IMG/VR virus record: IMGVR_UViG_2563366969_000004
Coordinates: 1-40,824 of that record
Direction: 5' to 3' (one strand)
Length of the DNA stretch: 40,824 nucleotides
Source: a virus
Taxonomy: Duplodnaviria > Heunggongvirae > Uroviricota > Caudoviricetes
Shown here piece by piece: positions 3,362 to 30,572 of the stretch. A model generated the notes under the pieces. That model worked only from the letters and a program-made list of their open reading frames with translations. It was not told the origin of the DNA and searched no databases. The translations under genes and the position numbers were made by a program. How positions within the stretch are numbered: position 1 is the first letter of the stretch; each line of letters begins with the position of its first letter.

Positions 3362-3388
3362 CCCGCAAAATATTGCGGGCTTTTTTTT
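3362..3388 (+). terminator. Rho-independent terminator oriented for plus strand
   Basis: CCCGCAA-aata-TTGCGGG followed by T8; overlaps stop of tailspike gene; no annotated plus-strand gene upstream. Confidence 0.45.
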
Positions 3389-6300
3389 AACGTTCTTCCA
3401 GAGACTGAATCCGCTCTTTTATCTTATCCATTTCTCTGCGCTGCCATGCTGCCTCGATATAGAATAAGAGATCAGGTCTGACCCCCCATCTAGATCCTGC
3501 TGGCGTTATTTCAACGCGCTCAATGATGTCTTCCATTACCATCACTGGATTATCATCCTCATCAACAATGATGCTCCCGTCATTATCAGTCAGCGGCATT
3601 TCCCTTTGGCCAGTAATGACGTCATCATATACTGCGGGATAATCGTCATAGCAAAGAAAGGCATAGCGGCATGTTGTGCTTTCTTCTTCCATGAGTCCGT
3701 GAGAAATAAGAACATCACGAAGTTGCTGCGCGATTACACCATGATGTATCCTCGCCCCTTCTTCCCCCTTTATAGCGACAGCGTTCAGCCATTTATAAGC
3801 GATATACCTGACGTCACCCCAGGCATCCAGCAATGCTTCGTCAGGAGAGACCGGCTCTGTCTTTAATGTTCCGTCACTGGTAACCACAGGATTGGAGCCA
3901 AGATAAACTGTCGAGAACCTGTTTCCCGGACCACCAAGAGCATTTACATTATCAAGATAAGGTTTAACATCTCCGTTCTCAAAAAGATGTTCGAGTGCGT
4001 TATATACCGCGCGACGTGGAGTACTGCTTCCGGAACCATGCAACGTTATCATTGCACCATCTGCTGAAGACGTTGTTTCACCGCCGCTAACGATTAATCT
4101 CTGAGCGGTAACATCATCAGACGGTACTTTCTTCGCAATAATGGCGTAATTACCCTCAAGTTTGACTTCCGCGCGAACTTGTCCTGATGTACCTGCATGG
4201 ACAGTCAGTGACTGGACGGCAACATCATCTGTGAAATCAACGGGTACAGGAACCGTCCTCACGCCTGACGTCGACATAAAAGTAGGAAGCGTTCTGTTAG
4301 GAGTGGCTCCGTAGACAAAATCCCTTGAAACAAATTCTTCCTGTTTAATTTTCACCCTGAAACAATACAAATCAGCCGGGTGACCATCGTGAACATAAGG
4401 ATATTTTCTGTTGTTATCCCCTATGCTCCATGGGTTTAGAAAGTCTTCCCCACCGAAAATGTAGTACAGCCAGTTGTCTTTGATACAAACTGAACCAACA
4501 CCAACCGCAGAGTTAACTATTCCGCCCTGATAAATCTGATCAGTAACATTAACCCACTCTACATTATCCAGACTCCACTCATTGACGTTAACTCTGGTCA
4601 TAAATGTTCTTGGATAGTTTCCTGCATAACGGTTATCAGGTTCTCCTCCTTCCCACTCACCAAATGCGCGCTCACTGCCAAAAATAATCAGCTCATCGCC
4701 AACTTTGGCAAAAGGAAGGTTTGAGTGATGAACATTATTTGGGAAGCGAAGAGAATTCCATGATGTACCTAAATCAGAGCTTCTGTGCAATGAACTACCG
4801 GGTTGAGTACTTAATGTCCCCCTGGTCGTCAGATACAGAATGCCATCATAATATTTTACACATGGCTCAGATGCATTCGCCTCATATTCTGCAGGTATGC
4901 GTCTGCGAACAAAGCTACCAGGAGAACCGAAAGCATCAGAGAAATAGAGTATCCCAAGCTCGCGTGGACCAATATCACCATTATGGTAGCCAACAGCAAA
5001 ACTGTTATCGCTAATCGTCGCAAAACTGTGAATCTCAGTAACAGGAGTGCTTCCGTCAACAAAAGAAGGAATAGTTCCAAGACTGGTTTTTCTCCATGGT
5101 GACGAGTGAAATGATGTACCAAAACTCCAGTATCTACCCTCGTTATTCTGATCCACATCCTGGGTATTTTGCGTCGTAACTGTAAAAGTATTTTTATCAA
5201 TAACAGTAGTCACCGTCATATTCCCGGTAACACCTGTAACACCAGAGTTTGAGAAGTTGACAAAATCACCAGCAAATAATCCGTGATCAGTAATGCGAAT
5301 ATAAGCGACTTGCTGATTTGCTGCTTTCGTTATACCACCATAAACGCGAAGGCTGCGACTCATTGGGCGATCCCACAACTCTGCAACCTGCAGTTTATTT
5401 CCGCTCACGGTCCGCGTCTCAATTACAGCAAAAAGGCGATTTCTGACAACCCCCATACTCATGCAGTGATAGTTAACTGTGGGATAGTTTTCATGTAAAT
5501 CTGTAAGCCATTCCGGCGTTGTCCAGGTCTTCCCGTCATCTCCTGAGCGAACCCATGCAACATGGAGGTTATTTACACCATGGCGGTCTCCAGCCATAAA
5601 AGGCGCATAGATGACATTGTCATATACAAACGTTTTATCCTGCGTCCAGGCGTTGTACCACGGTGTATCTGTAATTTTAAATAACTCTCCCTGGATAAAA
5701 TCTTCAGAAGCATAAAAAAGAGGCTGGCCCGGTATTCTCTCAAATAAAAAACGAGCATTTTTAAATCGACTGACATCCGGAAGAGTTGATACTTTAAAAG
5801 TAAGCCCTAATCCGTCAATTTTATAACCTGGAGATGAGGCTTCAAGGCACGCGCTTATTGCAGTGGAATCGTCATTTATACCATCACCAACAGCTCCAAA
5901 ATCTTTGGGGCTAATAGCATCACGCATTTTATCCTGGAACGTTCGGTACACAGCCCCAGAACCATACTGAATAAACCAACCAAAACCACCAACAACCCCG
6001 GCGATTGCAGCATCGACATAATTACGCATTGAGCGATTATTTACAGCGTCCTGCTCAAATGATGGATCTGCAAGGTTAGAAATTTTGTTTTGCTTTGCAT
6101 CGTAATATTTTGCAAGCAAAGATGGTTTCATCAATGCACGTCTGAACCACCCAAAACATTGCTGGATCAGCATCGTCAGGTAGTCAAAGGCATCTTCATG
6201 CACTTCGGGGAAAAATTTTCCCTGATTGCGAAGGTCTGTCTCCTGCACTACATCAAGCACACGATCTATCGTAATTCGCCATCCAGTAGCAAGCGGAGAC

Positions 6301-6506
6301 GGAAGAACCACAGAACCGCCACTATAAGTGCCCGCCCCAGTTACCGTATAACCGGTATCCAGAACCAATTCTGTTACGTTTCCGTTCAGGTCAGACACCT
6401 GAACAACCAGGTCTGATTTTCTGAAAATTCGAAAAGTATACGGAAACGATGTCGTAACGCCGTTACCGGTGTATTCGTTGTGGTCAACTTCGGTTGAGAC
6501 CGTCAT
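3387..6506 (-). CDS. Tailspike / polysaccharide depolymerase with C-terminal intramolecular chaperone (peptidase S74-like) domain
   Basis: 1039 aa; N-terminal virion-attachment-like segment; motif DFGAVGDGINDDSTAI; two Asp-box motifs (SGDDGKTW, SSDLGTSW) as in sialidase-type propellers; C-terminal SDGTLK motif and conserved tail resembling the auto-cleaving chaperone of endosialidases; SD GGAG upstream. Confidence 0.8.
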   Translation of the reverse strand: MTVSTEVDHNEYTGNGVTTSFPYTFRIFRKSDLVVQVSDLNGNVTELVLDTGYTVTGAGTYSGGSVVLPSPLATGWRITIDRVLDVVQETDLRNQGKFFPEVHEDAFDYLTMLIQQCFGWFRRALMKPSLLAKYYDAKQNKISNLADPSFEQDAVNNRSMRNYVDAAIAGVVGGFGWFIQYGSGAVYRTFQDKMRDAISPKDFGAVGDGINDDSTAISACLEASSPGYKIDGLGLTFKVSTLPDVSRFKNARFLFERIPGQPLFYASEDFIQGELFKITDTPWYNAWTQDKTFVYDNVIYAPFMAGDRHGVNNLHVAWVRSGDDGKTWTTPEWLTDLHENYPTVNYHCMSMGVVRNRLFAVIETRTVSGNKLQVAELWDRPMSRSLRVYGGITKAANQQVAYIRITDHGLFAGDFVNFSNSGVTGVTGNMTVTTVIDKNTFTVTTQNTQDVDQNNEGRYWSFGTSFHSSPWRKTSLGTIPSFVDGSTPVTEIHSFATISDNSFAVGYHNGDIGPRELGILYFSDAFGSPGSFVRRRIPAEYEANASEPCVKYYDGILYLTTRGTLSTQPGSSLHRSSDLGTSWNSLRFPNNVHHSNLPFAKVGDELIIFGSERAFGEWEGGEPDNRYAGNYPRTFMTRVNVNEWSLDNVEWVNVTDQIYQGGIVNSAVGVGSVCIKDNWLYYIFGGEDFLNPWSIGDNNRKYPYVHDGHPADLYCFRVKIKQEEFVSRDFVYGATPNRTLPTFMSTSGVRTVPVPVDFTDDVAVQSLTVHAGTSGQVRAEVKLEGNYAIIAKKVPSDDVTAQRLIVSGGETTSSADGAMITLHGSGSSTPRRAVYNALEHLFENGDVKPYLDNVNALGGPGNRFSTVYLGSNPVVTSDGTLKTEPVSPDEALLDAWGDVRYIAYKWLNAVAIKGEEGARIHHGVIAQQLRDVLISHGLMEEESTTCRYAFLCYDDYPAVYDDVITGQREMPLTDNDGSIIVDEDDNPVMVMEDIIERVEITPAGSRWGVRPDLLFYIEAAWQRREMDKIKERIQSLEER

Positions 6507-6610: not shown

Positions 6611-6625
6611 TTACCTTTCAGGTAA
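6611..6625. promoter_or_regulatory. TTACC-N5-GGTAA palindrome (putative repressor operator), copy A
   Basis: ATTACCtttcaGGTAAT perfect inverted repeat upstream of small antirepressor-like gene. Confidence 0.5.
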
Positions 6626-7730: not shown

Positions 7731-7745
7731 TTACCTTAAAGGTAA
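7731..7745. promoter_or_regulatory. TTACC-N5-GGTAA palindrome, copy B
   Basis: ATTACCttaaaGGTAAT, 20 bp upstream of start of 6982..7710 gene in divergent region. Confidence 0.5.
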
Positions 7746-7838: not shown

Positions 7839-7929
7839 ATTTACATCGCACTCCTCTTGTGCCATAGTAATCGGGCACTGGCAAAATCCAGTGCCGGGAT
7901 TGGCGTCCCGGGTTACTAAGTGGCGCATA

Positions 7930-7951
7930 CCACGCCAGACGTGGTTTTTTT
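7930..7951 (+). terminator. Rho-independent terminator/attenuator upstream of Bro-N gene
   Basis: CCACG-ccaga-CGTGG followed by T7; preceded by two further hairpins (7874..7895, 7895..7911). Confidence 0.5.
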
Positions 7952-8107
7952 ATGCGTTAAGCACAGCTATATCCGAATTATGGTGGGCTGGGCAGGGGTC
8001 CGAAAGGACGCCGGTACCACTTAGGCCGGTACGCCAACCTTGTCCAGTTCACCACCAGTAATTGGCGTTGCGGTGGTGATTAAAATCACTAAGTGGAGAT
8101 AACCACC

Positions 8108-21757: not shown

Positions 21758-22195
21758 TTAACCAGTTACTTTTGAGCGGATCGGATACGGCGTATTGGCA
21801 TCAACATCAAGATTGATACCCGCAGTGAATTTGCCAGCCGTTAGTGGGCCAGTTGCGACGGAGTAGTTAACACGCAGATATCGCTGAACACCGGCTGGCA
21901 CCTTTGCAGAAACAACTCGCTTACCTGCTGTCAGGGTGGCCTTTGCCAGTGCGCCACTATCATAAATAGTGGACCATGAGCTGTTATTCTCACTCGTCTG
22001 CAACTGGATGTTTACAGTTGCCTCACCACTTGCCGTGGCGGCTTCGTTAATCAGCACCCAAAACTCAAGCGGATAACCCACGCCGATATCGCGACGGTTT
22101 CCATCAATTGGACCGAGATCGATTACGTCAGTAGAAGCCGCGGTATTCGTAACCGCCTGAGCTTCGGAGAACATCAACAGTTTGTCGGTGATCAT
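21758..22195 (-). CDS. Capsid decoration / accessory capsid protein candidate
   Basis: 145 aa, Thr/Ser/Ala-rich beta-type composition, directly after major capsid gene with SD GGAGAAAG. Confidence 0.5.
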   Translation of the reverse strand: MITDKLLMFSEAQAVTNTAASTDVIDLGPIDGNRRDIGVGYPLEFWVLINEAATASGEATVNIQLQTSENNSSWSTIYDSGALAKATLTAGKRVVSAKVPAGVQRYLRVNYSVATGPLTAGKFTAGINLDVDANTPYPIRSKVTG

Positions 22196-22246
22196 CTTCT
22201 TTCTCCATTAGTGGGTCTGTTACGACCCACAGGTTAATAACAGGCG

Positions 22247-23239
22247 TTACACCACGCGGGCTTCTGTTTCCAGAAGCGCATCAGTTTCACGGATTGGTAC
22301 ACCACGGAATGAAGTCCACCACTCGCCTTCAGTCTCTTTTACGCTGATAGCCAGAGATGTTTTCTCCAGAGATTGCAGATCAAGAGCCTGGCCTACAGTG
22401 CGGTTCATGTAGAACACCGGGCGGCCCATGCCACGGTTTGGAATGCGATGCAGTGCCTTAACCATCAACTTGGCAATATTTGCGGCAGAGGATGGTTCTG
22501 AAAGATTGCTGACATCGATGTTTGCAATGCGAACAACATAACGCCAGTCACGCAGAGCAAGTCCGTTGTCCCATTTGTAATGGGTGCGATAACCTTCGTA
22601 CTTGCCGCCATTAGCATCTTCCAGTGTCACCTGGCCTTTATCTTCCATCTGGATGCCAGCCTTCTTCCCTTTCGGGAAGATGCCATGCACGGTGTTTTCG
22701 CCCCACACCACTAACCAGATTGAGGTGTTATCTGTACCCGTGCCACCAGCATCAATGATGTTCTGAGCATTACCTGCAGACAGGCTGGAATAGCGGGAGG
22801 ACAGTCCCATAAACTGCTGAGGGTTAACGCTGGAATCACCATAAAACAGCGTCTGCGCCATCTGCTGATTCATCGCTTCAATAAATGCGCGGTCTTCAGA
22901 CAGGCGGAATTCAGCGGTATTGCCGTTCAGATCAGCCAGTGACTTATCGACTTCAGCATAGGTTTCCAGCATGCCAACGGAATCGGTTACCTGCACTGTG
23001 GTTGATTTGCTTGGCTGTACGCCATAGTTCAGCAAACGCCAGGTAGCTGAAGGTAAACCAGAACGAATGGTGGTTCGGTGTCCGGTAGGAAGGTTCCCTT
23101 CGACAAAGGGCATATCCTGAAGGATCGGGTTAGTTTGACCGAGAAGCTCGATAATCTTATCGACTTTCCCGTTTGGATCGACGCGCTTACCCCAGTCAGC
23201 CAGCGTTAGCGCAGTTAAGCCTTTAACAGCCATTGTCAT
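22247..23239 (-). CDS. Major capsid protein
   Basis: 330 aa, between scaffold and decoration genes; position and size typical of podovirus HK97-fold coat proteins. Confidence 0.7.
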   Translation of the reverse strand: MTMAVKGLTALTLADWGKRVDPNGKVDKIIELLGQTNPILQDMPFVEGNLPTGHRTTIRSGLPSATWRLLNYGVQPSKSTTVQVTDSVGMLETYAEVDKSLADLNGNTAEFRLSEDRAFIEAMNQQMAQTLFYGDSSVNPQQFMGLSSRYSSLSAGNAQNIIDAGGTGTDNTSIWLVVWGENTVHGIFPKGKKAGIQMEDKGQVTLEDANGGKYEGYRTHYKWDNGLALRDWRYVVRIANIDVSNLSEPSSAANIAKLMVKALHRIPNRGMGRPVFYMNRTVGQALDLQSLEKTSLAISVKETEGEWWTSFRGVPIRETDALLETEARVV

Positions 23240-23247
23240 TTCCTCTC

Positions 23248-23949
23248 TTATTTGCCATAGAGCACTTCGGCCGCACTACGCTGGCCTTCATTACCACCGG
23301 TGACCATGCCATCTTCAGACATCGCCTTTCCGATTTTCACGAACGTTTTGACCAGATCAGGGTGATTACCCAGCCCGGTGGTGTTCAGATATTCTTTGAG
23401 CTCGGGTGTCCCGAACTGGTCAAGCGCACGCTGTGCGGCGCTAAGGTTAGAAATCAACTTGTCGCCACCAATTTCTTTGTCAGCTTTTACATCAGCAGCC
23501 CACTGCTCGGTTGTTTTCTGCCAGGCTTCTGCCTGGCGCTGCTGCACACCTGCCAGAATCTTCGGATAAGCATCAACCAGCTTTTGCGCTTGCTCGTTGG
23601 TCAGGTTTAGTTCTCGCGCCACCGGCTCGAATTCCTTCAACGCTTCTGTATCCAGCTCTACGCCTTCGGCAGCCTGAAACTCGTACTTCTCAGGCGCACC
23701 CTCTGGTTTATCGCCGCCCTTTTTTTCATCCTGCTTATCGTTTTCAGGCTTTTTGTCATCAGCAGGTTTATCGCCATCAGAAACAGGTTGTGGCTTATCA
23801 CCTTCCTGTTGTGATGGATCACCAACTGGAGCAGGGTTATCACCTGCAGGCGCTGACGGTTCTGACGCAGCCGGAGCTGCTCCACCATCGACTGGTTGCT
23901 CATTGCAAAGACGGCGATACAGCAAACGCTCAAATAAATTCATGATCAC
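23248..23949 (-). CDS. Scaffolding protein
   Basis: Acidic, Pro/Ala/Glu/Lys-rich low-complexity N-half, helical C-half; between portal and capsid genes. Confidence 0.6.
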   Translation of the reverse strand: MIMNLFERLLYRRLCNEQPVDGGAAPAASEPSAPAGDNPAPVGDPSQQEGDKPQPVSDGDKPADDKKPENDKQDEKKGGDKPEGAPEKYEFQAAEGVELDTEALKEFEPVARELNLTNEQAQKLVDAYPKILAGVQQRQAEAWQKTTEQWAADVKADKEIGGDKLISNLSAAQRALDQFGTPELKEYLNTTGLGNHPDLVKTFVKIGKAMSEDGMVTGGNEGQRSAAEVLYGK

Positions 23950-24242
23950 TCCTGTTCACTGGCCTCTTTGGCCATCTTCAAATACTGTTCAGGGCAATGC
24001 GCCATAACGCGCTGAAACAGTTCCAGCGCCAGATTGCGTTGCCCCTCATTAAATGCCATTGCCATAGCATCCATCGGAGAGATAGCGGAAAACACCCGGC
24101 CTTTCTCCAGCACCGACCAGACAACGCGACGCCCCTGTTCACTGCTCATGACAAAGCGAATGTCATCAATTTCACGCTGTGCCATGTCACGTTGCTTACG
24201 GGCGTTTTCTTCTTTCAGTTGATCGTCTTCGTAATCTGTCAT
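23946..24242 (-). CDS. Hypothetical protein in head module
   Basis: 98 aa, acidic, translationally coupled between portal and scaffold. Confidence 0.5.
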   Translation of the reverse strand: MTDYEDDQLKEENARKQRDMAQREIDDIRFVMSSEQGRRVVWSVLEKGRVFSAISPMDAMAMAFNEGQRNLALELFQRVMAHCPEQYLKMAKEASEQE

Positions 24243-25918
24243 TGTGATTGCCCACCCTGACCACTAACTGCATTCGCCATAGCTGACAAAACACTCGGAT
24301 CCGAAGTTTTAGCTTCGCTTAGCGTCTTGGCACCCTGTGCCGCCGCCATCCCCATCGCCATCATTTGTTGCTGCTGTTGTTGCTGTGCCCGTTGCTGGCG
24401 AGCCTGCTCAACCTGTTCCTGCGGAACAATGACGGTTGGAGACACTCCGGACATATCAGCGAATGCATCGATCGCCTGATCAACGTTGAGTTTGTCGAGA
24501 GCTTCTGGTTTCGCTTGCGCAAGTTGACCAATGAAGTTAACCGTGGACGCCAGACTGGACAGGCCGATAGACTTCTGCGCCTGAGCCATGACGGAAATGT
24601 ATTCGACCTTCAGGGGCATACCTTCCATCACGTCTGGCGGTGGCGGCAGCATGTTTTTACGCACCATCATCGAGAAAGAGCGGTCAATGAGAGGATTAAG
24701 ACATTCGTCGTTCAGGCGCTCCAGAACCGGCCCCAACATCAGAAGTTTTTCTTCTTTCATTTCGATCACCGCTTCCACAGGCATCGAGCGGGTATTGATG
24801 TTCTGCAACATCATGAACAGATCGACAAAGTAGGCGCTGTTAATGATTTGACGAGTGTCCTGAATGTCTGCCACCAAATCTGCTGTACTGGGGTTAACCA
24901 GATAAGCAGGCCTGAAACCATCCTGACCAGTAATCTGATCGATATACGTGATGTCGCCAGGAAGAAGGGAGGCGCGCTGATTCTTGAGGGAAGTCGGAGC
25001 AACCATCGGCGGATTGGTGGCTTTATCAATCAACTGCGACTTGCGCTTCTGGAGAAGCTGCAATGCCTTAACAGGTCCAAGCGCCAGCATACCCGGGCAT
25101 GATGATCCATAAACATCTTCGCCGTTAACTTCCCAGCGCGGAGCCATAATTGGAAACTCATCGAATCCGGACTCACGCAACAACTTGTCGTTATCGCCAC
25201 CAACCTCGTAATAAACCGATTTGAATGGCTTGTTCTTGCTATCCAGCTTCGATGTATCGCGGTCAATGTTCGGGTAAACCGAATGCATCACTTCAATCCA
25301 CTTCTCGTAGGTGCCGCTTTCCCACATGCTTTTTACGGATTCGCTGACGTTATTTAGCCCGAACTCCTGAACAAGCTGACGAACAGTCATAGAGAACTTG
25401 CGAAAACAGGTGTCCACACTGCCACGAGGTGAGTTAGCCAGGTAGTAACTGCCTATCGGGAATGGCATTGTGCGAATGATGTCCTCGTCATCCTCCAGCA
25501 CCGCCATTGCACCAGTGCTGTATGTGCCGAGGCTTCCGTATAACTGCGGAAGAGACTGGTAGAGATTCGACTTATTGAACATATCGTTCATGCGGTTCTG
25601 CACCGCCTCGAGCCACAACTTAACAGGACCATAATCCATCATTTCAGGATCTGGCGTAGCCAGGCGAAACCACGGACGCGCAGGGCTTGTGATGCCTGAC
25701 ATCATGCCGCTGGCGAGAGTGCGCGCCGCCATAGTCCCGGTCGAATCAATAATGCGTGTATTGCGTCGATCGTTACGGTTGACTTCAGAAGTCAGAAAGC
25801 GGGAACCACGCGGGTTGATGTAATCACTCAACTCGCGCCAGTGCGGCTCGAACGACTGACGCTCGCTTTCAAGTTGTGCGAACTGTTTGTTCAATCGCTC
25901 TTTAGTTGTTTCCGCCAT
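24239..25918 (-). CDS. Portal protein (podovirus head-to-tail connector type)
   Basis: 559 aa downstream of large terminase; poly-Gln/Ala C-terminal tail; size and position typical. Confidence 0.8.
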   Translation of the reverse strand: MAETTKERLNKQFAQLESERQSFEPHWRELSDYINPRGSRFLTSEVNRNDRRNTRIIDSTGTMAARTLASGMMSGITSPARPWFRLATPDPEMMDYGPVKLWLEAVQNRMNDMFNKSNLYQSLPQLYGSLGTYSTGAMAVLEDDEDIIRTMPFPIGSYYLANSPRGSVDTCFRKFSMTVRQLVQEFGLNNVSESVKSMWESGTYEKWIEVMHSVYPNIDRDTSKLDSKNKPFKSVYYEVGGDNDKLLRESGFDEFPIMAPRWEVNGEDVYGSSCPGMLALGPVKALQLLQKRKSQLIDKATNPPMVAPTSLKNQRASLLPGDITYIDQITGQDGFRPAYLVNPSTADLVADIQDTRQIINSAYFVDLFMMLQNINTRSMPVEAVIEMKEEKLLMLGPVLERLNDECLNPLIDRSFSMMVRKNMLPPPPDVMEGMPLKVEYISVMAQAQKSIGLSSLASTVNFIGQLAQAKPEALDKLNVDQAIDAFADMSGVSPTVIVPQEQVEQARQQRAQQQQQQQMMAMGMAAAQGAKTLSEAKTSDPSVLSAMANAVSGQGGQSQ

Positions 25919-25932
25919 TTCAATGACTCCGG

Positions 25933-26139
25933 TTACTGACCAAGCAGCGTTTTACCGCTGGTATTAGCGGTTGATGTGTCGCCCTGAGAACCGGTAAGCA
26001 GCGTAGAACTACGACCAGCAGCAGCGCGACGGCGACGTGTTTCTTCGTCGCGGGCATCAACAACGGCGGCATCCTGCTCCTGTGGTGCTGCCTGAACTTC
26101 TGGTGTTGCAGGCACTGATGGTGAGCTACCCATGCACAT
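25933..26139 (-). CDS. Small hypothetical protein upstream of portal
   Basis: 68 aa, SD GGAG 9 nt upstream of ATG; low complexity. Confidence 0.35.
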   Translation of the reverse strand: MCMGSSPSVPATPEVQAAPQEQDAAVVDARDEETRRRRAAAGRSSTLLTGSQGDTSTANTSGKTLLGQ

Positions 26140-26229
26140 ATCAATGACTCCGTACGCAATTAAATTATTACCAATTTAACCACATATGATTTATTTATCG
26201 TAGAAGGTTGACATTTAACGCGTTAATTA

Positions 26230-26244
26230 TTACCTTTCAGGTAA
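26230..26244. promoter_or_regulatory. TTACC-N5-GGTAA palindrome, copy C
   Basis: ATTACCtttcaGGTAAC; TTGACA hexamer at 26208..26213 just upstream; about 320 bp upstream of tRNA. Confidence 0.5.
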
Positions 26245-26566
26245 CCAAAGGGCTCATTCTGGTTACTAACCTGACTGGCTTGTCGTTAAATTAAACAGGT
26301 GGAGTGAGCTTTTATTTTGAGCAGTACGGCGTATGGCACATGCGCCGATAGCGGTCTGGATACGTTTAAGGGGCACCCTCCCTGGCTGTGGCAAACGAAC
26401 CAGGTAGCCGGAATGTGCAAGTCGAGCGGTTTTATTCCGCGCACGGGGATTCACCATCCCGGCGATTCGGTGTGACGCCTCGGAAGAGACGAGGGTACAA
26501 CGATGAGAGCATTTATGGAGCCGCGACAAAGTGTGGCGCCTTAACAGGCTAAGTGCTCTCAGCGTT

Positions 26567-26643
26567 GTGGCATTAGCTCAGTTGGACAGAGCAACCGCCT
26601 TCTAAGCGGTTGGTCGCAGGTTCGAATCCTGCATGCCACGCCA
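26567..26643 (+). tRNA. tRNA-Arg (anticodon UCU), phage-encoded
   Basis: Cloverleaf folded by hand: acceptor GTGGCAT/ATGCCAC, D-arm GCTC/GAGC, anticodon stem ACCGC/GCGGT with loop CTTCTAA, T-arm GCAGG-TTCGAAT-CCTGC, discriminator G and encoded CCA. Confidence 0.9.
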
Positions 26644-26686
26644 GAATCACGCCTAAGGACCGTGATGCCAGAAGTTCCAGGTGCTT

Positions 26687-26728
26687 GGCGGTGATGGTTT
26701 CCCTTGAAGGACTATCACCGCCCTTTTT
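26687..26728 (+). terminator. Long-loop hairpin with T-run downstream of tRNA
   Basis: GGCGGTGAT ... ATCACCGCC (9-bp stem, 18-nt loop) followed by CTTTTT. Confidence 0.4.
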
Positions 26729-26806
26729 ACAGCAGGACGCCATTGCGATGACTTCATGCTGTAAACCAGTACAGCCACGGAAGGCATAACTCATTGCTTC
26801 CAGTTC

Positions 26807-26829
26807 GCCCGGTTCGCCGGGCATTTTTT
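26807..26829 (+). terminator. Rho-independent terminator
   Basis: GCCCGG-ttcg-CCGGGC followed by ATTTTTT. Confidence 0.6.
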
Positions 26830-26840
26830 AAGGTGAGATC

Positions 26841-27263
26841 ATGAAGACAATTGATATGTTGGCTAAGTATCTAAATGAATGGCCATTAAAATATTCTCGT
26901 ATCGTTCAGGCTGAAGACTGCATTTTTTATGGCGTTTTTGCTGGTAATGAAATGCATTACGAAGTAATTCAGAGTGAGGGACTGGCCGGGTTAACTCTTA
27001 GCGAAGACCATGGTACTAGCGTTACGTACCATGACTGGATTTCAGCGCAGAAAACTGAAATGGAAAAAGGCAATGTGTTTGATATTTCTCGCGCTGTATA
27101 CGCCAAAGAAAAAAGTGATGATGATTACATGCGCGAAAACTTATACAACATGAAGTTACAATGCCTGGCTGAAGTGCTTAGTAAAAGATCTTTACTTGAT
27201 GTGGTTGGTGCTGAGCAGGACGCCAAGGCAATCAACGCCGCATTCGATAAAATAACCTTCTAA
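26841..27263 (+). CDS. Hypothetical protein (140 aa), moron between terminase and portal
   Basis: SD AAGGTGAG upstream of ATG; AT-rich by eye; opposite strand to flanking late genes; own terminator. Confidence 0.6.
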   Translation: MKTIDMLAKYLNEWPLKYSRIVQAEDCIFYGVFAGNEMHYEVIQSEGLAGLTLSEDHGTSVTYHDWISAQKTEMEKGNVFDISRAVYAKEKSDDDYMRENLYNMKLQCLAEVLSKRSLLDVVGAEQDAKAINAAFDKITF

Positions 27264-27267
27264 CGCC

Positions 27268-27279
27268 GTGACATGTCAC
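27268..27279. repeat. 12-bp perfect palindrome GTGACATGTCAC, copy 2
   Basis: Exact match 5 nt after stop of 26841..27263 gene and 5 nt before terminator hairpin. Confidence 0.7.
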
Positions 27280-27284
27280 AATCA

Positions 27285-27308
27285 GCCCGCCGATTCGCGG
27301 GCTTTTTT
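27285..27308 (+). terminator. Rho-independent terminator
   Basis: GCCCGC-cgattc-GCGGGC followed by T6; overlaps stop of large terminase gene. Confidence 0.65.
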
Positions 27309-28782
27309 ATGCAAAAGGATCATAGTCTGTGATGGCTTTGCCTTGCTGGTTCTGCTGCCCGGGAATTCGCAGACGCTTCGACACAGGGAACGCAAACGTC
27401 AGCAGTAGCGCATCGCCTTTACCAGGAGAACGCCCAAGTCGCTCTTTGATATCTTCCTTCGGTTCGATAACGATTTTACCGTCCACGCGAACTTTGTACT
27501 CTGCCGTCGACAGGTCGTCCGCTGTTTCCTGGTCATCCAGCATGCCGCCGAGCCTCAGCCATGTCTTGCATGAGTTGAACATCTCCCCACGCTTGTTGAG
27601 CATCTGCGGGTCAGTAGACGCGCCACCGAACGGAACAAGTTGCCATGTACGACCCCAGCCGTCACCGATTGACTTCAAACCGGTTCCGTAACCGAAGTCG
27701 ATGAACACCGCGTCAGCCTGATACTGGTCTTCAAAGTCAGCGATACGCTTCGCCATAATCAGATCGTCGGTAGTCTTGTTGCCAGTCCACAGCACCTTAC
27801 TGTGTAGCCCCTGCCGCAGGTATATCACCGCGTCATCAACGCCGGAGTATGCCGGGTCAACGCCGATTATCACCGGAGCATGTGCCACCTGCGCAGCGGT
27901 TACCACCCGTTTCATTGCCTCGTCAGTAAGACCGGTAGGGATAAACTGCAATTCAGATGCATCAGGGAATATGCCGCGCACACGGATTTTAACGAAGTCG
28001 CTGTCTTCCCCGTAGTCATCAACCCATTTCTGCAACTGCTGTTTGTTAGTGCCTTCCACCGTTCGGCTGTCAATCTGCGCAGTTTTCCAGCGGTGTTTAT
28101 ATTTGCGGAAACATTCGCGGAAACGTCCGGTATTACGCGTCGGGTTTCCGAACGCCACCCAGATAATCTCAGTGTCTTCGTCCGTTAGTGCACCCTCGGC
28201 AACTTCCCACACCAGATCCGCAATGTTCGACGCTTCATCGAATACCACGATGATGCGTTTGCGCTCGTTGTGTAGTCCGGCGAATGCCTCAGTGTTGTGC
28301 TCAGACCAGGGGATTGCGTCAGCTCGCCACCGCTTGTCGTGTCCAGGATCATTGCTGTACATCGCGGTAGCGGTACAGGTAAACCAGTCTTTCGTGATAG
28401 CAAGGTTCGACCACTTGATAATTTCCGGCCAGGTCTTCGTTCGTAGCTGGTTGTCGGTGTTGGCGGTCACCACAACCTTACAATCCTCGCAAGTGGACAT
28501 GCCCCAGTTGATCAGCATTGAGATGAATGCGGATTTACCAATACCGTGACCAGAAGCGCGTGCCAGCATAAGCGGCTGATAACGCGTCTCTGGATTCTGC
28601 AGGTGATCACGTATCTCTCGGAACGCATCGGCCTGCCACTGACGTGGACCGGTAGCATGTGCCAGTTCAGTCCCCTCTTCCCCCCAAGGGAACGCATAGA
28701 GGGCATAGCCAAGCGGATCGTGAGTGAACCCTGCAATATCTTCGATTAACTGCTCTTCAGGAGATAACGCTGCATCTGTCAC
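27307..28782 (-). CDS. Terminase large subunit
   Basis: 491 aa; Walker A-like GHGIGKS; C-terminal nuclease-type acidic motifs (VDPAYSGVDDAVI); directly downstream of small terminase. Confidence 0.85.
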   Translation of the reverse strand: MTDAALSPEEQLIEDIAGFTHDPLGYALYAFPWGEEGTELAHATGPRQWQADAFREIRDHLQNPETRYQPLMLARASGHGIGKSAFISMLINWGMSTCEDCKVVVTANTDNQLRTKTWPEIIKWSNLAITKDWFTCTATAMYSNDPGHDKRWRADAIPWSEHNTEAFAGLHNERKRIIVVFDEASNIADLVWEVAEGALTDEDTEIIWVAFGNPTRNTGRFRECFRKYKHRWKTAQIDSRTVEGTNKQQLQKWVDDYGEDSDFVKIRVRGIFPDASELQFIPTGLTDEAMKRVVTAAQVAHAPVIIGVDPAYSGVDDAVIYLRQGLHSKVLWTGNKTTDDLIMAKRIADFEDQYQADAVFIDFGYGTGLKSIGDGWGRTWQLVPFGGASTDPQMLNKRGEMFNSCKTWLRLGGMLDDQETADDLSTAEYKVRVDGKIVIEPKEDIKERLGRSPGKGDALLLTFAFPVSKRLRIPGQQNQQGKAITDYDPFA

Positions 28783-29384
28783 TGATTGCCATCCTGACGT
28801 TCTTTCAGTCTCTTCCTGGCTGCCGCTATGCGATCAGCAATTGTCACATTCACATTAACATCCAGGCGTTCTTTGAATGCATTGACATCGACGTGCTTAC
28901 CAATCAGTTCGAGGTTCTTCACCTTGTCAGGCCATTTAATTTTTTTGAGGATTGTCTCTATCGAATCCTCGTCCATGTTCATGATGGTCGATGACAGATC
29001 AAAGCCGCTAAGCGTAGTGCGCCAGATTTTCGGCCACTCGCGGATTGGCTTAAGGCTCCCATCGTCGTTGAGGATATCAATCACGTCCATCTGGTCGATC
29101 TCCACCAGGCGCATGAGAACGTAATCAGCACTGACGCGCATTCGTTTGTTGCGCTCCTCCATCAACTCGGCAATCCGTTTCTGAATGCGTTCATCGCGCA
29201 TCATGACACTGGCTTTAACTGCCGCTGTATTTGGGGAGAATCCTGCATTAATCGCAGCCTGAGTCTGATTTTCAGGCGTTTTGATGTATGACTGGCAATA
29301 AGCCTCCTGCATTGCTGTTAGTGGCTTAAATTGCGTTGATTTGCGTTTATAGGTTTTAGGTTCAGCAGGCATCATAACCACCAT
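28779..29384 (-). CDS. Terminase small subunit (Terminase_2-like)
   Basis: LTAMQEAYCQSYIKTPENQTQAAINAGFSPNTA matches conserved N-terminal HTH of the small-terminase family; start uncertain (in-frame ATGs at 29384, 29375, 29372; the six-frame ORF starts at TTG 29453). Confidence 0.65.
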   Translation of the reverse strand: MVVMMPAEPKTYKRKSTQFKPLTAMQEAYCQSYIKTPENQTQAAINAGFSPNTAAVKASVMMRDERIQKRIAELMEERNKRMRVSADYVLMRLVEIDQMDVIDILNDDGSLKPIREWPKIWRTTLSGFDLSSTIMNMDEDSIETILKKIKWPDKVKNLELIGKHVDVNAFKERLDVNVNVTIADRIAAARKRLKERQDGNQ

Positions 29385-29449
29385 GGTAATAGTTACCGTT
29401 GTGGTAATAGTACCATGCAAAATAAAGCCGCCATAGTTGGCGGCAGTAT

Positions 29450-29662
29450 TCAAAGTCCATCAAATTCATCGTAAAAACTCTCGTCAAGATACCCTTCCCA
29501 TTTACCGCGAATGAAAATTACATCCTCGCCGCAAGGGTGCTGACTGTCGATAACTATATCCCTCCTGGCGCAACCATACTTATGCATGAGAAATTTAACC
29601 TCTTTCGGAAAATTTGCTGAGTTATCTCTCATATCTTCAAGGTCGTAGCGTATTTTTGGCAT
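29450..29662 (-). CDS. Small hypothetical protein (70 aa)
   Basis: ATG at 29660..29662 (complement) with SD GAAGGTG; palindrome copy 3 lies just upstream. Confidence 0.4.
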   Translation of the reverse strand: MPKIRYDLEDMRDNSANFPKEVKFLMHKYGCARRDIVIDSQHPCGEDVIFIRGKWEGYLDESFYDEFDGL

Positions 29663-29671
29663 AACACCTTC

Positions 29672-29683
29672 GTGACATGTCAC
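29672..29683. repeat. 12-bp perfect palindrome GTGACATGTCAC, copy 3
   Basis: Exact match immediately upstream of the SD of 29450..29662 gene and overlapping the end of 29680..30021 gene. Confidence 0.7.
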
Positions 29684-30021
29684 ACTATTAATTTCGTTTC
29701 ATGCCAGCCTTTAGTCACCCAGCATTGCGAGTCACCATTACACGGGCATGAATTAACGGGAACTCTCTCGCCGCACTTACCGCAAAGTTTTCTGCTGATC
29801 GATTTTATACGCCCGCGCACACGTGCATCATCCTGGCGGATCAGCAGCGCGATGTACTCGGCCATTTCATAGGGATCGTGACCAGGGCGCCGGGCGGCGC
29901 AGTTCCGCGCCAGCATTTCCTGCTCCTGCTTATCCAGCACCAGTTCAATTTTGCGCTCACCGGCGGCGGACTGCCGAGCGCGCTGCGCGGCTTTGCGCTC
30001 TGCTGCTGATTTAGCCATCAA
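29680..30021 (-). CDS. Hypothetical protein with C-terminal zinc ribbon; possible regulator
   Basis: 113 aa; basic N-terminus, C-terminal CGKCG...CPC cysteine cluster; last small gene before terminase genes. Confidence 0.45.
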   Translation of the reverse strand: MMAKSAAERKAAQRARQSAAGERKIELVLDKQEQEMLARNCAARRPGHDPYEMAEYIALLIRQDDARVRGRIKSISRKLCGKCGERVPVNSCPCNGDSQCWVTKGWHETKLIV

Positions 30022-30292
30022 TATTCACCTTTATAGCGAACACCTTTACCGGTTTATCGCCGAAGTGCGGATGTGTGATTGTCTTGATTTCATATCCGTC
30101 ATACGGGACGTCAATTCTGCGGCTGGAATCGTCGCGCTTCGGATATCCCTTTGTGATAATCAGGCGGTCATACTCGCGGAACATAATTCGCTTATTCCAG
30201 TAGTCATTGCACAGGCGATACTCTTCCGTTTTCTCTCCGCGAATCATGGCATCGAAGTATTCACCTTTAACGGCAAGTTGCAGGTTAGCCAC
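30011..30292 (-). CDS. ASCH/DUF3850-like small protein
   Basis: 93 aa; MANLQLAVKGEYFDAMIRGEKTEEYR resembles N-terminal pattern of ASCH-fold phage proteins; assignment from memory. Confidence 0.4.
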   Translation of the reverse strand: MANLQLAVKGEYFDAMIRGEKTEEYRLCNDYWNKRIMFREYDRLIITKGYPKRDDSSRRIDVPYDGYEIKTITHPHFGDKPVKVFAIKVNIDG

Positions 30293-30572
30293 GACCTTCC
30301 TCCTTTGGCTTGTGAATTTGTATCGTCATGCCGCTTTGAGTGGTGACTACAACGACAGAACCAGGCTGAAGACTGTTAAGATTGAATGCTTCGTAAAACG
30401 AAGCCAAGGCCAGCGCTTTTTTATTCTTTCGGTTCCACCAACGCCATCCATTGCTACAGGCTACACTGACAATCCACTGTCCACTCCTGTAAGCCATATA
30501 AAACCAGATGAGCAAAACCTGAATGAATGCTATCCAGTCAATAATCGTATATTTCGCGAAGGAGACCATCAA
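30285..30572 (-). CDS. Small membrane protein, unknown function
   Basis: 95 aa with N-terminal hydrophobic helix, Trp-rich. Confidence 0.4.
   Translation of the reverse strand: MMVSFAKYTIIDWIAFIQVLLIWFYMAYRSGQWIVSVACSNGWRWWNRKNKKALALASFYEAFNLNSLQPGSVVVVTTQSGMTIQIHKPKEEGRG

Follow-up and report, generated by a model that had tools for sequence, protein, structure and literature searches.

In phage HK022, the put RNA keeps RNA polymerase from pausing and terminating, which it does by binding the β′ zinc-binding domain of the enzyme. RNase P matures the C4 antisense RNA of phages P1/P7 and cuts eukaryotic MALAT1 next to the tRNA-like mascRNA; GOLLD and ROOL, structured prophage RNAs of unknown function that often adjoin tRNA genes, are much larger than the RNA described here and belong to other bacterial phyla. 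Put measures ~70 nt and folds into two stem-loops and a triplex (PMC9378689). Here, we analyzed a 40,824-nt stretch of prophage DNA (IMG/VR record IMGVR_UViG_2563366969_000004, positions 1 to 40,824; hereafter the window, to which all coordinates refer unless a locus is named) and found, between its portal and large terminase genes, a conserved RNA of ~240 nt (26326..26568) that consists of four covarying helices, an H-type pseudoknot, and a long closing helix. It lies on the plus strand, as do the other features of the cassette described below except the operator, a palindrome. Sequence comparison shows it to be a conserved noncoding structured RNA and, because it is the constant part, we infer that it is the primary component of the cassette. 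The interval as a whole is best explained as a repressor-controlled early RNA cassette of an epsilon15/phiV10-like (Uetakevirus) prophage, oriented away from both flanking late genes. The tRNA-Arg and the 140-aa open reading frame (ORF) that the cassette also contains would alone be routine: the tRNA is already known from phages, and the ORF belongs to a PHROG to which no function has been assigned. The value of the locus lies instead in a widespread, covariation-supported pseudoknotted RNA that heads early transcripts of three temperate phage groups and bears a modular attachment site for tRNAs or small RNAs.

The core of the structured RNA (26326..26494; covariance model R1, 144.5 bits, and covariation tests) opens with the P1 hairpin (26327..26347) and helix S2 (26351..26359 with 26400..26408), which encloses a variable hairpin. 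These are followed by the near-invariant strand GGUAGCCGGAAUGUGCAAG (26403..26421), another variable hairpin (26426..26440), hairpin S4 with the loop UUCACCA (26446..26460), and hairpin S5 (26478..26494). The pseudoknot is formed by CACC of the S4 loop (26452..26455) and GGUG further downstream (26469..26472). In the 3′ domain (26497..26568), the closing helix S6 pairs ACAACG-AU-GAGAGCA (26497..26511) with UGCUCUC-AG-CGUUGU (26554..26568) around a variable insert, and its last two bases are the first two bases of the tRNA. Conserved single-stranded blocks alternate in the alignments with hairpins that vary in length and sequence, ACCA of the S4 loop is invariant, and S6 is kept in at least three sequence versions, namely GAGAGCA/UGCUCUC, AAGAGCA/UGCUCUU, and GAGCGCAC/GUGCGCUC.

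Four helices were defined by hand and then tested against 500 shuffles and slid controls. Among 38 representatives, 95.3% of the cells were paired and compensatory changes affected 12 pairs (74 cells), which none of the 500 shuffles equaled; the slid controls reached 27 to 46%. With the two candidate pseudoknots included, the same representatives gave 97.4% paired cells, 12 compensatory pairs (73 cells), no equal among 500 shuffles, and slid controls of 25 to 48%. The 81 distinct sequences aligned to the covariance model yielded 97.5% paired cells and 203 compensatory cells (0/500 shuffles; slid controls, 28 to 46%), figures that lean toward the structure because this alignment was fitted to the model, whereas both alignments of the 38 representatives were made without it. 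In the H-type pseudoknot between CACC of the S4 loop and the downstream GGUG, a C-G pair is replaced by A-U in three mEp460-type sequences; since these are related, the change possibly reflects a single event. A pairing of the S4 loop with the downstream UGGUGAA was rejected, as the mEp460-type sequences do not support it and the pseudoknot with CGGUGU covaries instead. A second pseudoknot is possible between GCAC of the P1 loop and GUGC of the invariant strand, a candidate pairing whose sequence never varies. Folding z-scores were −2.9 for the leader (26245..26566) and −4.8 for the full transcript (26244..26735).

It is extremely improbable that the conserved block acts at the DNA level, e.g., as the boundary of a recombination module or as a site for protein binding, or that it encodes a small protein, instead of being an RNA. 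The block does mark mosaic joints between unrelated phages, a second, decaying copy of it stands in tandem around an inserted gene in one contig (L028), and a 122-aa ORF is annotated across it on the opposite strand in the mEp460 record. However, the compensatory base-pair changes are strand-specific evidence for RNA, the block is always oriented sense to an early promoter, and it has neither a conserved reading frame nor indels in multiples of three. Modulo 3, the core lengths spread over all three classes (34, 13, and 34 sequences), and no open frame exists in 14 of the 81 distinct sequences; a protein-coding leader was rejected on these statistics. Antisense ORFs run across the structured RNA both in the window (26266..26529, minus strand, 87 aa) and in mEp460 (mEp460_037 in JQ182728, the 122-aa ORF, annotated as hypothetical); because of the RNA covariation and the lack of frame conservation, they are probably spurious gene calls. 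The two copies in L028 lie on the minus strand ~640 nt apart (4804..4972 and 3997..4167), the second one degenerate, and flank an ORF on the opposite strand, an arrangement that looks like cargo insertion with partial duplication.

Beyond the genus, 26326..26566 matches unrelated phages at 72 to 82% identity. These include lambdoid phages (mEp460, cdtI, Ayreon, many Stx2c and some Stx2a phages), P1-like phages (P1, P7, D6, SJ46, and RCS47), Klebsiella and Enterobacter phages, and one Stenotrophomonas phage. The near-invariant 19-mer GGTAGCCGGAATGTGCAAG (26403..26421) occurs in >120 IMG/VR contigs, and megablast with 26200..26740 placed the region in 1072 of 5426 complete Escherichia coli genomes, approximately a fifth. 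Sorted by context, 120 IMG/VR loci comprised 41 in the portal/terminase slot of Uetakevirus, 61 adjoining a cI-type repressor (in 32 cases together with a YfdQ-type early-left operon), 15 in a P1-like ban operon, and 3 unclassified. A GTDB pattern scan, for which we estimate ~nine chance matches, also pointed to Pirellulaceae, Bacteroidota, Clostridia, and Acidovorax, but the sequences found there do not fit the covariance model, and a wider taxonomic spread was rejected. One GTDB match that does fit, from a Bacillota metagenome-assembled genome, is on a 1.7-kb contig and may be a contaminant.

The structured RNA found no counterpart in Rfam, in annotations, or in the literature. Rfam 15 run on the whole window in gathering mode left the tRNA as the only model passing its gathering score here, and E-value mode (≤5) on 26100..27350 gave no plus-strand match inside the leader (26245..26566); five related loci likewise yielded no family for it. 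Among the E. coli genome matches listed, the Prokaryotic Genome Annotation Pipeline (PGAP) annotates nothing under the megablast matches except tRNA-Arg. In the GenBank records and PGAP matches that we examined, the RNA is either blank or overlaid by a hypothetical ORF, e.g., mEp460_037, on the wrong strand. Full-text literature searches on the sequence itself, put-like RNAs, Stx2c early regions, and the P1 trnI-ban interval retrieved no description, with incomplete coverage in which subscription journals may hold one.

In all three contexts, the RNA is invariably oriented sense to a repressor-controlled early promoter, and it is for this reason predicted to be made on infection or induction and not in the lysogen. 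Strong sigma-70 promoters stand 30 to 125 nt upstream of it, that of Stx2c phages (TTGACA-16-CATAAT) with 11/12 consensus matches. Lambdoid carriers share the order cI, cI terminator, strong promoter, ~50 nt, RNA, a further structured domain, strong terminator, and early-left genes. No second promoter was found in these loci between the PL promoter and the early-left genes, and PL is the only strong promoter in Stx2c phage L006. A terminator of approximately −20 kcal/mol lies 80 to 300 nt past the RNA in nearly all non-P1 loci, with same-strand genes behind it. The PL operons of mEp460 and Stx2c phages showed no N-like gene at their heads, where the first ORFs encode a 120-aa protein devoid of an arginine-rich motif and then YfdQ- and YfdR-like proteins. 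In P1 (NC_005856, 71009..71200), the RNA comes directly after trnI and ~100 nt before ban, inside the C1-controlled ban operon. Further RNA modules are common to these phages. Directly before a C4 antisense RNA (66 bits), the window carries an isrK-like RNA (67.7 bits), both above their gathering scores (7875..8059), with operator copies just upstream at 7731 and 7824; the isrK and C4 pair also occurs on the PR side of mEp460 and of a Stx2c phage, both of which carry the structured RNA. These unrelated phages thus exchange several RNA modules.

The cassette in the window starts with a promoter-like site (26208..26236) read from the sequence, in which a −35 hexamer TTGACA (26208..26213) is separated by a 17-nt spacer from TACCTT as the −10 element (26231..26236). 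This TTGACA-17-TACCTT arrangement stands 89 nt upstream of the RNA in all phiV10-type loci. Overlapping the −10 element and the start site is a repressor operator, TTACCTTTCAGGTAA (26230..26244), a TTACC-N5-GGTAA palindrome that copies exactly the site at 6611. A preliminary description of this DNA had noted both the TTGACA hexamer and the operator copy, and both are present. TACCTT, the best −10 hexamer, matches TATAAT at only 3/6 positions, and the site fails a strict consensus scan; we therefore regard it as a putative promoter on the grounds of TTGACA, spacing, the overlapping operator, and conservation in relatives. The palindrome has 22 matches in the window at ≤3 mismatches versus 0.83 expected, which argues that TTACC-N5-GGTAA is a genuine operator family. 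Copies at 6611, 7731, 7824, 32252, 32314, 34601, 35313, and 35375, among others, indicate repressor control at no fewer than five or six places in the prophage. At the equivalent place, the epsilon15 record annotates a lysogeny-repressor site, an integration host factor (IHF) site, and a putative RNase III site. Loss of repression would lead to early transcription of the unit.

The Uetakevirus form of the transcript has a long 5′ hairpin of its own (26248..26313; 13-bp outer stem in the minimum free energy fold). In Tyrion, PAT1, and epsilon15, both strands of the stem have changed with pairing preserved (GGCUCA/UGAGCU to GCGCGC/GCGCGC), and it is over the equivalent stretch that epsilon15 carries its annotated "RNaseIII" processing site. 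Altogether, ~600 nt without a plausible ORF separate the promoter-like site from the ORF of the cassette, a stretch that contains the 5′ hairpin, the ~240-nt pseudoknotted RNA, tRNA-Arg(UCU), and two terminator-like sites. The hairpin terminators reported earlier, two after the tRNA and one after the 140-aa gene, were recovered by a scan for GC-rich hairpins followed by a T run, which three plus-strand sites satisfied (26687..26722, 26807..26822, and 27284..27303). Terminator t1 (26687..26728; 14-bp stem and T run) closes an untranslated transcript of ~490 nt. Terminator t2 (26807..26829) consists of GCCCGG-UUCG-CCGGGC and a T run and is conserved in Tyrion and epsilon15, the record of the latter annotating a rho-independent terminator right before its cargo gene. 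Terminator t3 (27284..27309) follows the ORF, just before the convergent terminase gene. The spacer between t1 and t2 (26735..26806), containing GCCAUUGCGAUGAC and UGCUGUAAACC, is conserved in epsilon15 and Tyrion although their surroundings differ, and can fold a hairpin ACAGCA…UGCUGU.

Directly abutting the structured RNA is an argU-like tRNA-Arg(UCU) with an encoded CCA (26567..26643), the only tRNA that ARAGORN calls in the window (anticodon TCT). It scores 73.3 bits against the full Rfam model RF00005 (gathering score, 29) with no noncanonical pairs, has the anticodon loop CUUCUAA, and ends in …AUGCCAC-G-CCA at 26643; it is hence intact, as the preliminary description stated. O157 typing phages 9 and 10 carry the same gene under the annotation tRNA-Arg, as do E. 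coli genomes processed by PGAP. At its conserved end, the RNA has the sequence …CGUU|GUGG, whose GUGG already belongs to the tRNA; the latter starts two bases within S6. It ends just ahead of the hairpin AAUCACGCCUAAGGACCGUGAU and terminator t1. Across 107 usable loci, tRNA-Arg(UCU) directly follows the RNA in 24, tRNA-Ile2 directly precedes it in 13 (P1 type), and 70 have no tRNA, a tally that points to the tRNA as an exchangeable small-RNA cargo attached to a constant RNA. The ~320 nt previously described as an unassigned leader are no leader of the tRNA; their 3′ 240 nt make up an independent conserved structured RNA. Cassettes of Tyrion, PAT1, epsilon15, and an Enterobacter prophage lack a tRNA.

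Relatives without the tRNA carry in its exact position a multibranched RNA of 78 to 160 nt, which we call domain X (L003 3243..3380, L006 2738..2855, and L008 2780..2915, among others). Domain X is closed by GUUGUGG(U)/(A)CCACAAC; a T-arm-like hairpin abuts the 3′ strand, CCA sometimes follows, and ARAGORN makes no tRNA call on it. The same hairpin and terminator come after domain X as after the tRNA. This hairpin (AUCACG…CGUGAU) lies at 26646..26666 in the window, and its sequence AAUCACGCCUNAGGACCGUGAU follows domain X in loci L045, L069, L086, L105, and L125 and in Tyrion. In Stenotrophomonas phage vB_SmeS_BUCT708 (L007 2631..2750), the place of the tRNA is occupied by an RprA-like small RNA (sRNA) followed by a terminator. 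With 50.2 bits, it scores below the gathering score of the Rfam RprA model (70) and has the identical AAUUGCUGUGUGUAGUCUU; it is possibly a phage-encoded mimic of the host sRNA. A locus in the chromosome of E. coli AW1.7 (L163 216..369) pairs tRNA-Arg(UCU) with tRNA-Asn; this tRNA-Arg resembles that of the window in the anticodon arm and variable region and differs in the acceptor stem. Cleavage by RNase P at 26566/26567 would split the structured RNA from the tRNA and leave it with a defined 3′ end.

The supply of AGA decoding to the phage is a plausible and conventional role for the tRNA. AGA accounts for 5.7 per 1000 codons and 9.4% of the Arg codons in the 43 long ORFs of the window; E. 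coli K-12 uses it at roughly 2 per 1000, so the enrichment is modest. A 1039-codon minus-strand ORF at 3387..6506 holds 16 of the 68 AGA codons of the window plus 8 AGG, the tail genes are also AGA rich, and AGA is absent from the portal gene, the large terminase gene, and the ORFs between these and the tail genes (21758..24242). The AGA-usage check proposed in the preliminary description thus bears out a moderate enrichment that does not extend to the portal and large terminase genes. In size and position, the ORF at 3387..6506 resembles a tail-spike gene, and it would be the first to benefit from tRNA-Arg(UCU), which would add AGA decoding for this gene and the tail genes.

The 140-aa ORF (26841..27263) is preceded by the Shine-Dalgarno sequence AAGGTGAG (26830..26837) and belongs to PHROG 4846, a family without known function (E = 6e-92; residues 1 to 140 on profile positions 1 to 140). 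Its 107 homologues, down to ~40% identity, come from Escherichia, Salmonella, Citrobacter, Klebsiella, Enterobacter, and Hafnia, and the two divergent homologues whose context was examined (Enterobacter and Klebsiella) both lie in the portal/terminase slot. It has no Pfam, PADLOC, or PDB sequence match. Its AlphaFold model (mean predicted local distance difference test score, 79.6; predicted template modeling score, 0.51) combines an N-terminal α/β part with a C-terminal helical hairpin and found one weak match in BFVD, an unnamed phage protein. The ORFs in the same slot of O157 typing phage 9 (phiV10 type), epsilon15, and PAT1 are unrelated to it. The ORF is a real, conserved gene, as previously described with its own Shine-Dalgarno sequence and no recognizable motif, and it is a variable cargo. 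Of its earlier proposal as an accessory or antidefense candidate, the conserved gene stands, while no defense or antidefense family matched. No promoter-like site was detected by the consensus scan between t1 and its ATG, so that the gene probably depends on read-through of t1 and t2. Compared with a moron, an accessory gene transcribed independently from the prophage, it gives a mixed picture: it is AT rich, has its own terminator, and sits in a variable slot, but it lacks a promoter-like site of its own and the sole upstream promoter carries a repressor operator.

The cassette is flanked on the portal side by a 68-aa gene (25933..26139) and the portal gene (24239..25918), and on the other side by the large terminase gene (27307..28782), all on the minus strand in the ORF list; the tRNA and the 140-aa gene are indeed opposite to their neighbors, as had been reported. 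GC content is ~57% in the leader, 40 to 45% in the 140-aa ORF, and 53 to 58% in the flanks. The chromosome of E. coli O1:K1:H7 APEC E16002 (NZ_CP126944) matches 26200..26740 at 100% identity, and Uetakevirus phages, among them phiV10, O157 typing phages 9 and 10, TL-2011b, PAS61, and HEMP4, match 26100..27350 at 93 to 98%. In the records of these phages the cassette lies, as in the window, between the portal-side small gene and the large terminase gene on the opposite strand. The same slot is used in epsilon15, Tyrion, PAT1, and Enterobacter and Klebsiella prophages, i.e., in Uetakevirus-like phages whose hosts are E. coli, Salmonella, Enterobacter, and Klebsiella. Most relatives cease to match at the DNA level at ~26840, and the 140-aa gene is shared at this level by PAS61 and HEMP4 only. 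The constant component across these relatives is the "leader" sequence, of which epsilon15 keeps only a remnant. Judged by the identical slot across Uetakevirus-like phages and the Enterobacter and Klebsiella prophages, the cassette is an ancestral, divergently oriented early unit of the epsilon15/phiV10 genus and not a recent insertion; its tRNA may be present or absent, and several cargo genes unrelated to one another, including the 140-aa ORF, can fill it.

These observations bear on the first view of the locus, namely, that an accessory segment was inserted recently, its upstream 320 nt being no more than a processed leader of the tRNA, with the tRNA serving AGA decoding and the 140-aa protein acting as a moron or antidefense factor. 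The intact tRNA, the AGA codons clustered in tail genes, and an AT-rich, conserved ORF of unknown function agree with it. Nevertheless, we consider it improbable, since the leader is conserved with covariation in the 70 of 107 loci without a tRNA, and in lambdoid and P1-like phages too, and the slot is ancestral to the genus. In addition, the operator predicts expression in lytic growth and not from the prophage, at odds with a classical moron, and the protein belongs to no matched defense or antidefense family.

What the structured RNA does is best approached from its surroundings. Its constant position behind early promoters, the constant succession of a terminator and promoter-less genes, and the lambdoid carriers without N favor a cis-acting early-leader RNA that would carry transcription past downstream terminators, a reading to which we assign a probability of roughly 35%. 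The RNA would act in cis on its own transcription complex or transcript, and transcription from the early promoter would thereby survive the ~600-nt untranslated stretch and pass the strong terminators behind it. In the window, it would reach the cargo gene; in the N-less lambdoid phages, in which the lack of an N-like gene in the mEp460 and Stx2c PL operons calls for another way past the terminator, the whole PL operon would be transcribed. Functionally, the RNA would be a counterpart of HK022 put, the precedent for such an action (PMC9378689), though its fold is unrelated and far larger. Several points weigh against such a function. Model R1 has no match at E ≤1 in the HK022 immunity region (24500..30500), and there is one RNA copy per phage, with none on the PR side of mEp460. 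Read-through in the window would run antisense into the terminase operon, which looks harmful, and it would be unparsimonious for a genus to conserve a 240-nt RNA merely to express a cargo gene that varies and can be dispensed with. In epsilon15, most of the RNA has disappeared along with t1, yet t2 and the cargo gene remain. The P1 RNA is 2.3 kb from its promoter, lacks S6, and has no strong terminator behind it. Finally, cis action leaves the tight coupling to a tRNA or tRNA-like domain unexplained.

That coupling would be accounted for if the transcript were a stable trans-acting early noncoding RNA, e.g., a sponge or decoy for a host protein, a defense factor, or an RNA-processing factor, whose 3′ end is set via RNase P by the adjacent tRNA or tRNA-like domain. 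We regard this main rival as only slightly less likely than cis action. In the phage group of the window, the RNA has its own operator-controlled promoter and a strong terminator ~490 nt later, and it combines a large fold, including the covarying pseudoknot, with near-invariant single-stranded stretches. The conserved 3′ boundary coincides with the 5′ end of the tRNA, domain X starts at the same position in relatives that have no tRNA, and in P1 it is the RNA that begins directly after trnI. It is also the RNA that is conserved across the genus, whereas the downstream ORF is not, and epsilon15 lost RNA and t1 together, like a single gene. A trans-acting RNA does not explain, however, why the lambdoid copies stand precisely in the gap from PL to the early genes, in front of a strong terminator that has to be overcome for these genes to be expressed; it names no protein partner or target; and the negative ARAGORN result on domain X does not help it.

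A sensor RNA, riboswitch-like or tRNA-sensing, that decides on termination behind it and makes early-operon expression depend on a metabolite or on the condition of a host RNA would fit a complex, pseudoknotted, aptamer-like architecture followed by an intrinsic terminator in a 5′ leader, as well as the invariant ACCA of the S4 loop. Moreover, GUUGU can pair either with the upstream ACAAC in S6 or with the downstream ACAAC in the closing stem of domain X, two mutually exclusive helices. We nonetheless find a sensor unlikely: the terminator hairpin is self-contained and 80 to 300 nt past the core, no conserved competing sequence was found, the P1 copies have no terminator, and no Rfam riboswitch family matches. 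We retain cis action on transcription as the favored, still tentative, function. At the level of the class, the odds are slightly on the side of a new kind of phage early RNA, which would be either a factor-independent antiterminator unrelated to put or an RNase P-matured noncoding RNA with swappable small-RNA cargo (tRNA-Arg, the RprA-like sRNA, or domain X).

The carriers of this RNA are temperate enterobacterial phages of three groups unrelated to one another (epsilon15/phiV10-like, N-less lambdoid/Stx2c, and P1-like). Among them, P1, the Stx2c-converting phages, and the phiV10/epsilon15 group are well studied, and some are medically relevant; a conserved pseudoknotted RNA that heads their repressor-controlled early transcripts would fill a gap in the picture of their regulation. 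Acting in cis, it would account for expression of the early-left operon in phages without N protein, Stx2c phages included, and would add a second, independent case in which RNA alone controls RNA polymerase. Acting in trans, it would represent a new early RNA of phages, to which tRNAs or small RNAs attach at a modular site. Either way, the RNA has escaped annotation, both in phage P1 and in the ~20% of complete E. coli genomes that contain it. The covariance model could annotate it in >1000 E. coli genomes, where ORFs called across the element, such as mEp460_037, are probably spurious.

Of the described systems, HK022 put is closest in setting. Both RNAs lie just downstream of a repressor-controlled early promoter in lambdoid phages without N protein, both precede terminators that face the early operon, and both are highly structured. 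The structured RNA differs in its ~165-nt core with a closing-helix domain, in its other helices and pseudoknot, and in occurring as one copy per phage (in the mEp460 early region), in contrast to putL and putR of HK022; its further settings are the late region of a podovirus and, 2.3 kb from the promoter, the ban operon of P1. Homology to put was ruled out by the negative R1 search of the HK022 immunity region and by an architecture different from the published fold (PMC9378689). The lambda nut site (boxA and boxB, recognized with N protein) shares the position after PL; the 3′ strand of S6, UGCUCUC or UGCUCUU, resembles boxA, and a GC-rich hairpin follows this strand by 12 nt in mEp460, Tyrion, and SopranoGao. 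Unlike boxA, this strand covaries freely as one side of S6 (e.g., GCGCCGUUU and GUGCGCUCC), and the window has the tRNA in place of a boxB hairpin. A nut site was rejected as the main explanation, given a boxA-like strand that is one side of a covarying helix and no N-like ORF at the operon head. GOLLD and ROOL are likewise structured, tRNA-adjacent noncoding prophage RNAs; both are in Rfam and neither matches the RNA described here. The likeness to C4 and MALAT1-mascRNA lies in a noncoding RNA placed directly against a tRNA or tRNA-like structure, and C4 is carried by the same or related phages; C4 has no sequence or structure similarity to the structured RNA, for which cleavage by RNase P is predicted. 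As for phage tRNAs, those of O157 typing phages 9 and 10 and of phiv142-3 are the same tRNA-Arg gene in the same slot, with ~97% identity over a block containing the tRNA. The tRNA of the window is itself no different from these; the new aspect is its location, which elsewhere belongs to a tRNA-like domain on a conserved RNA.

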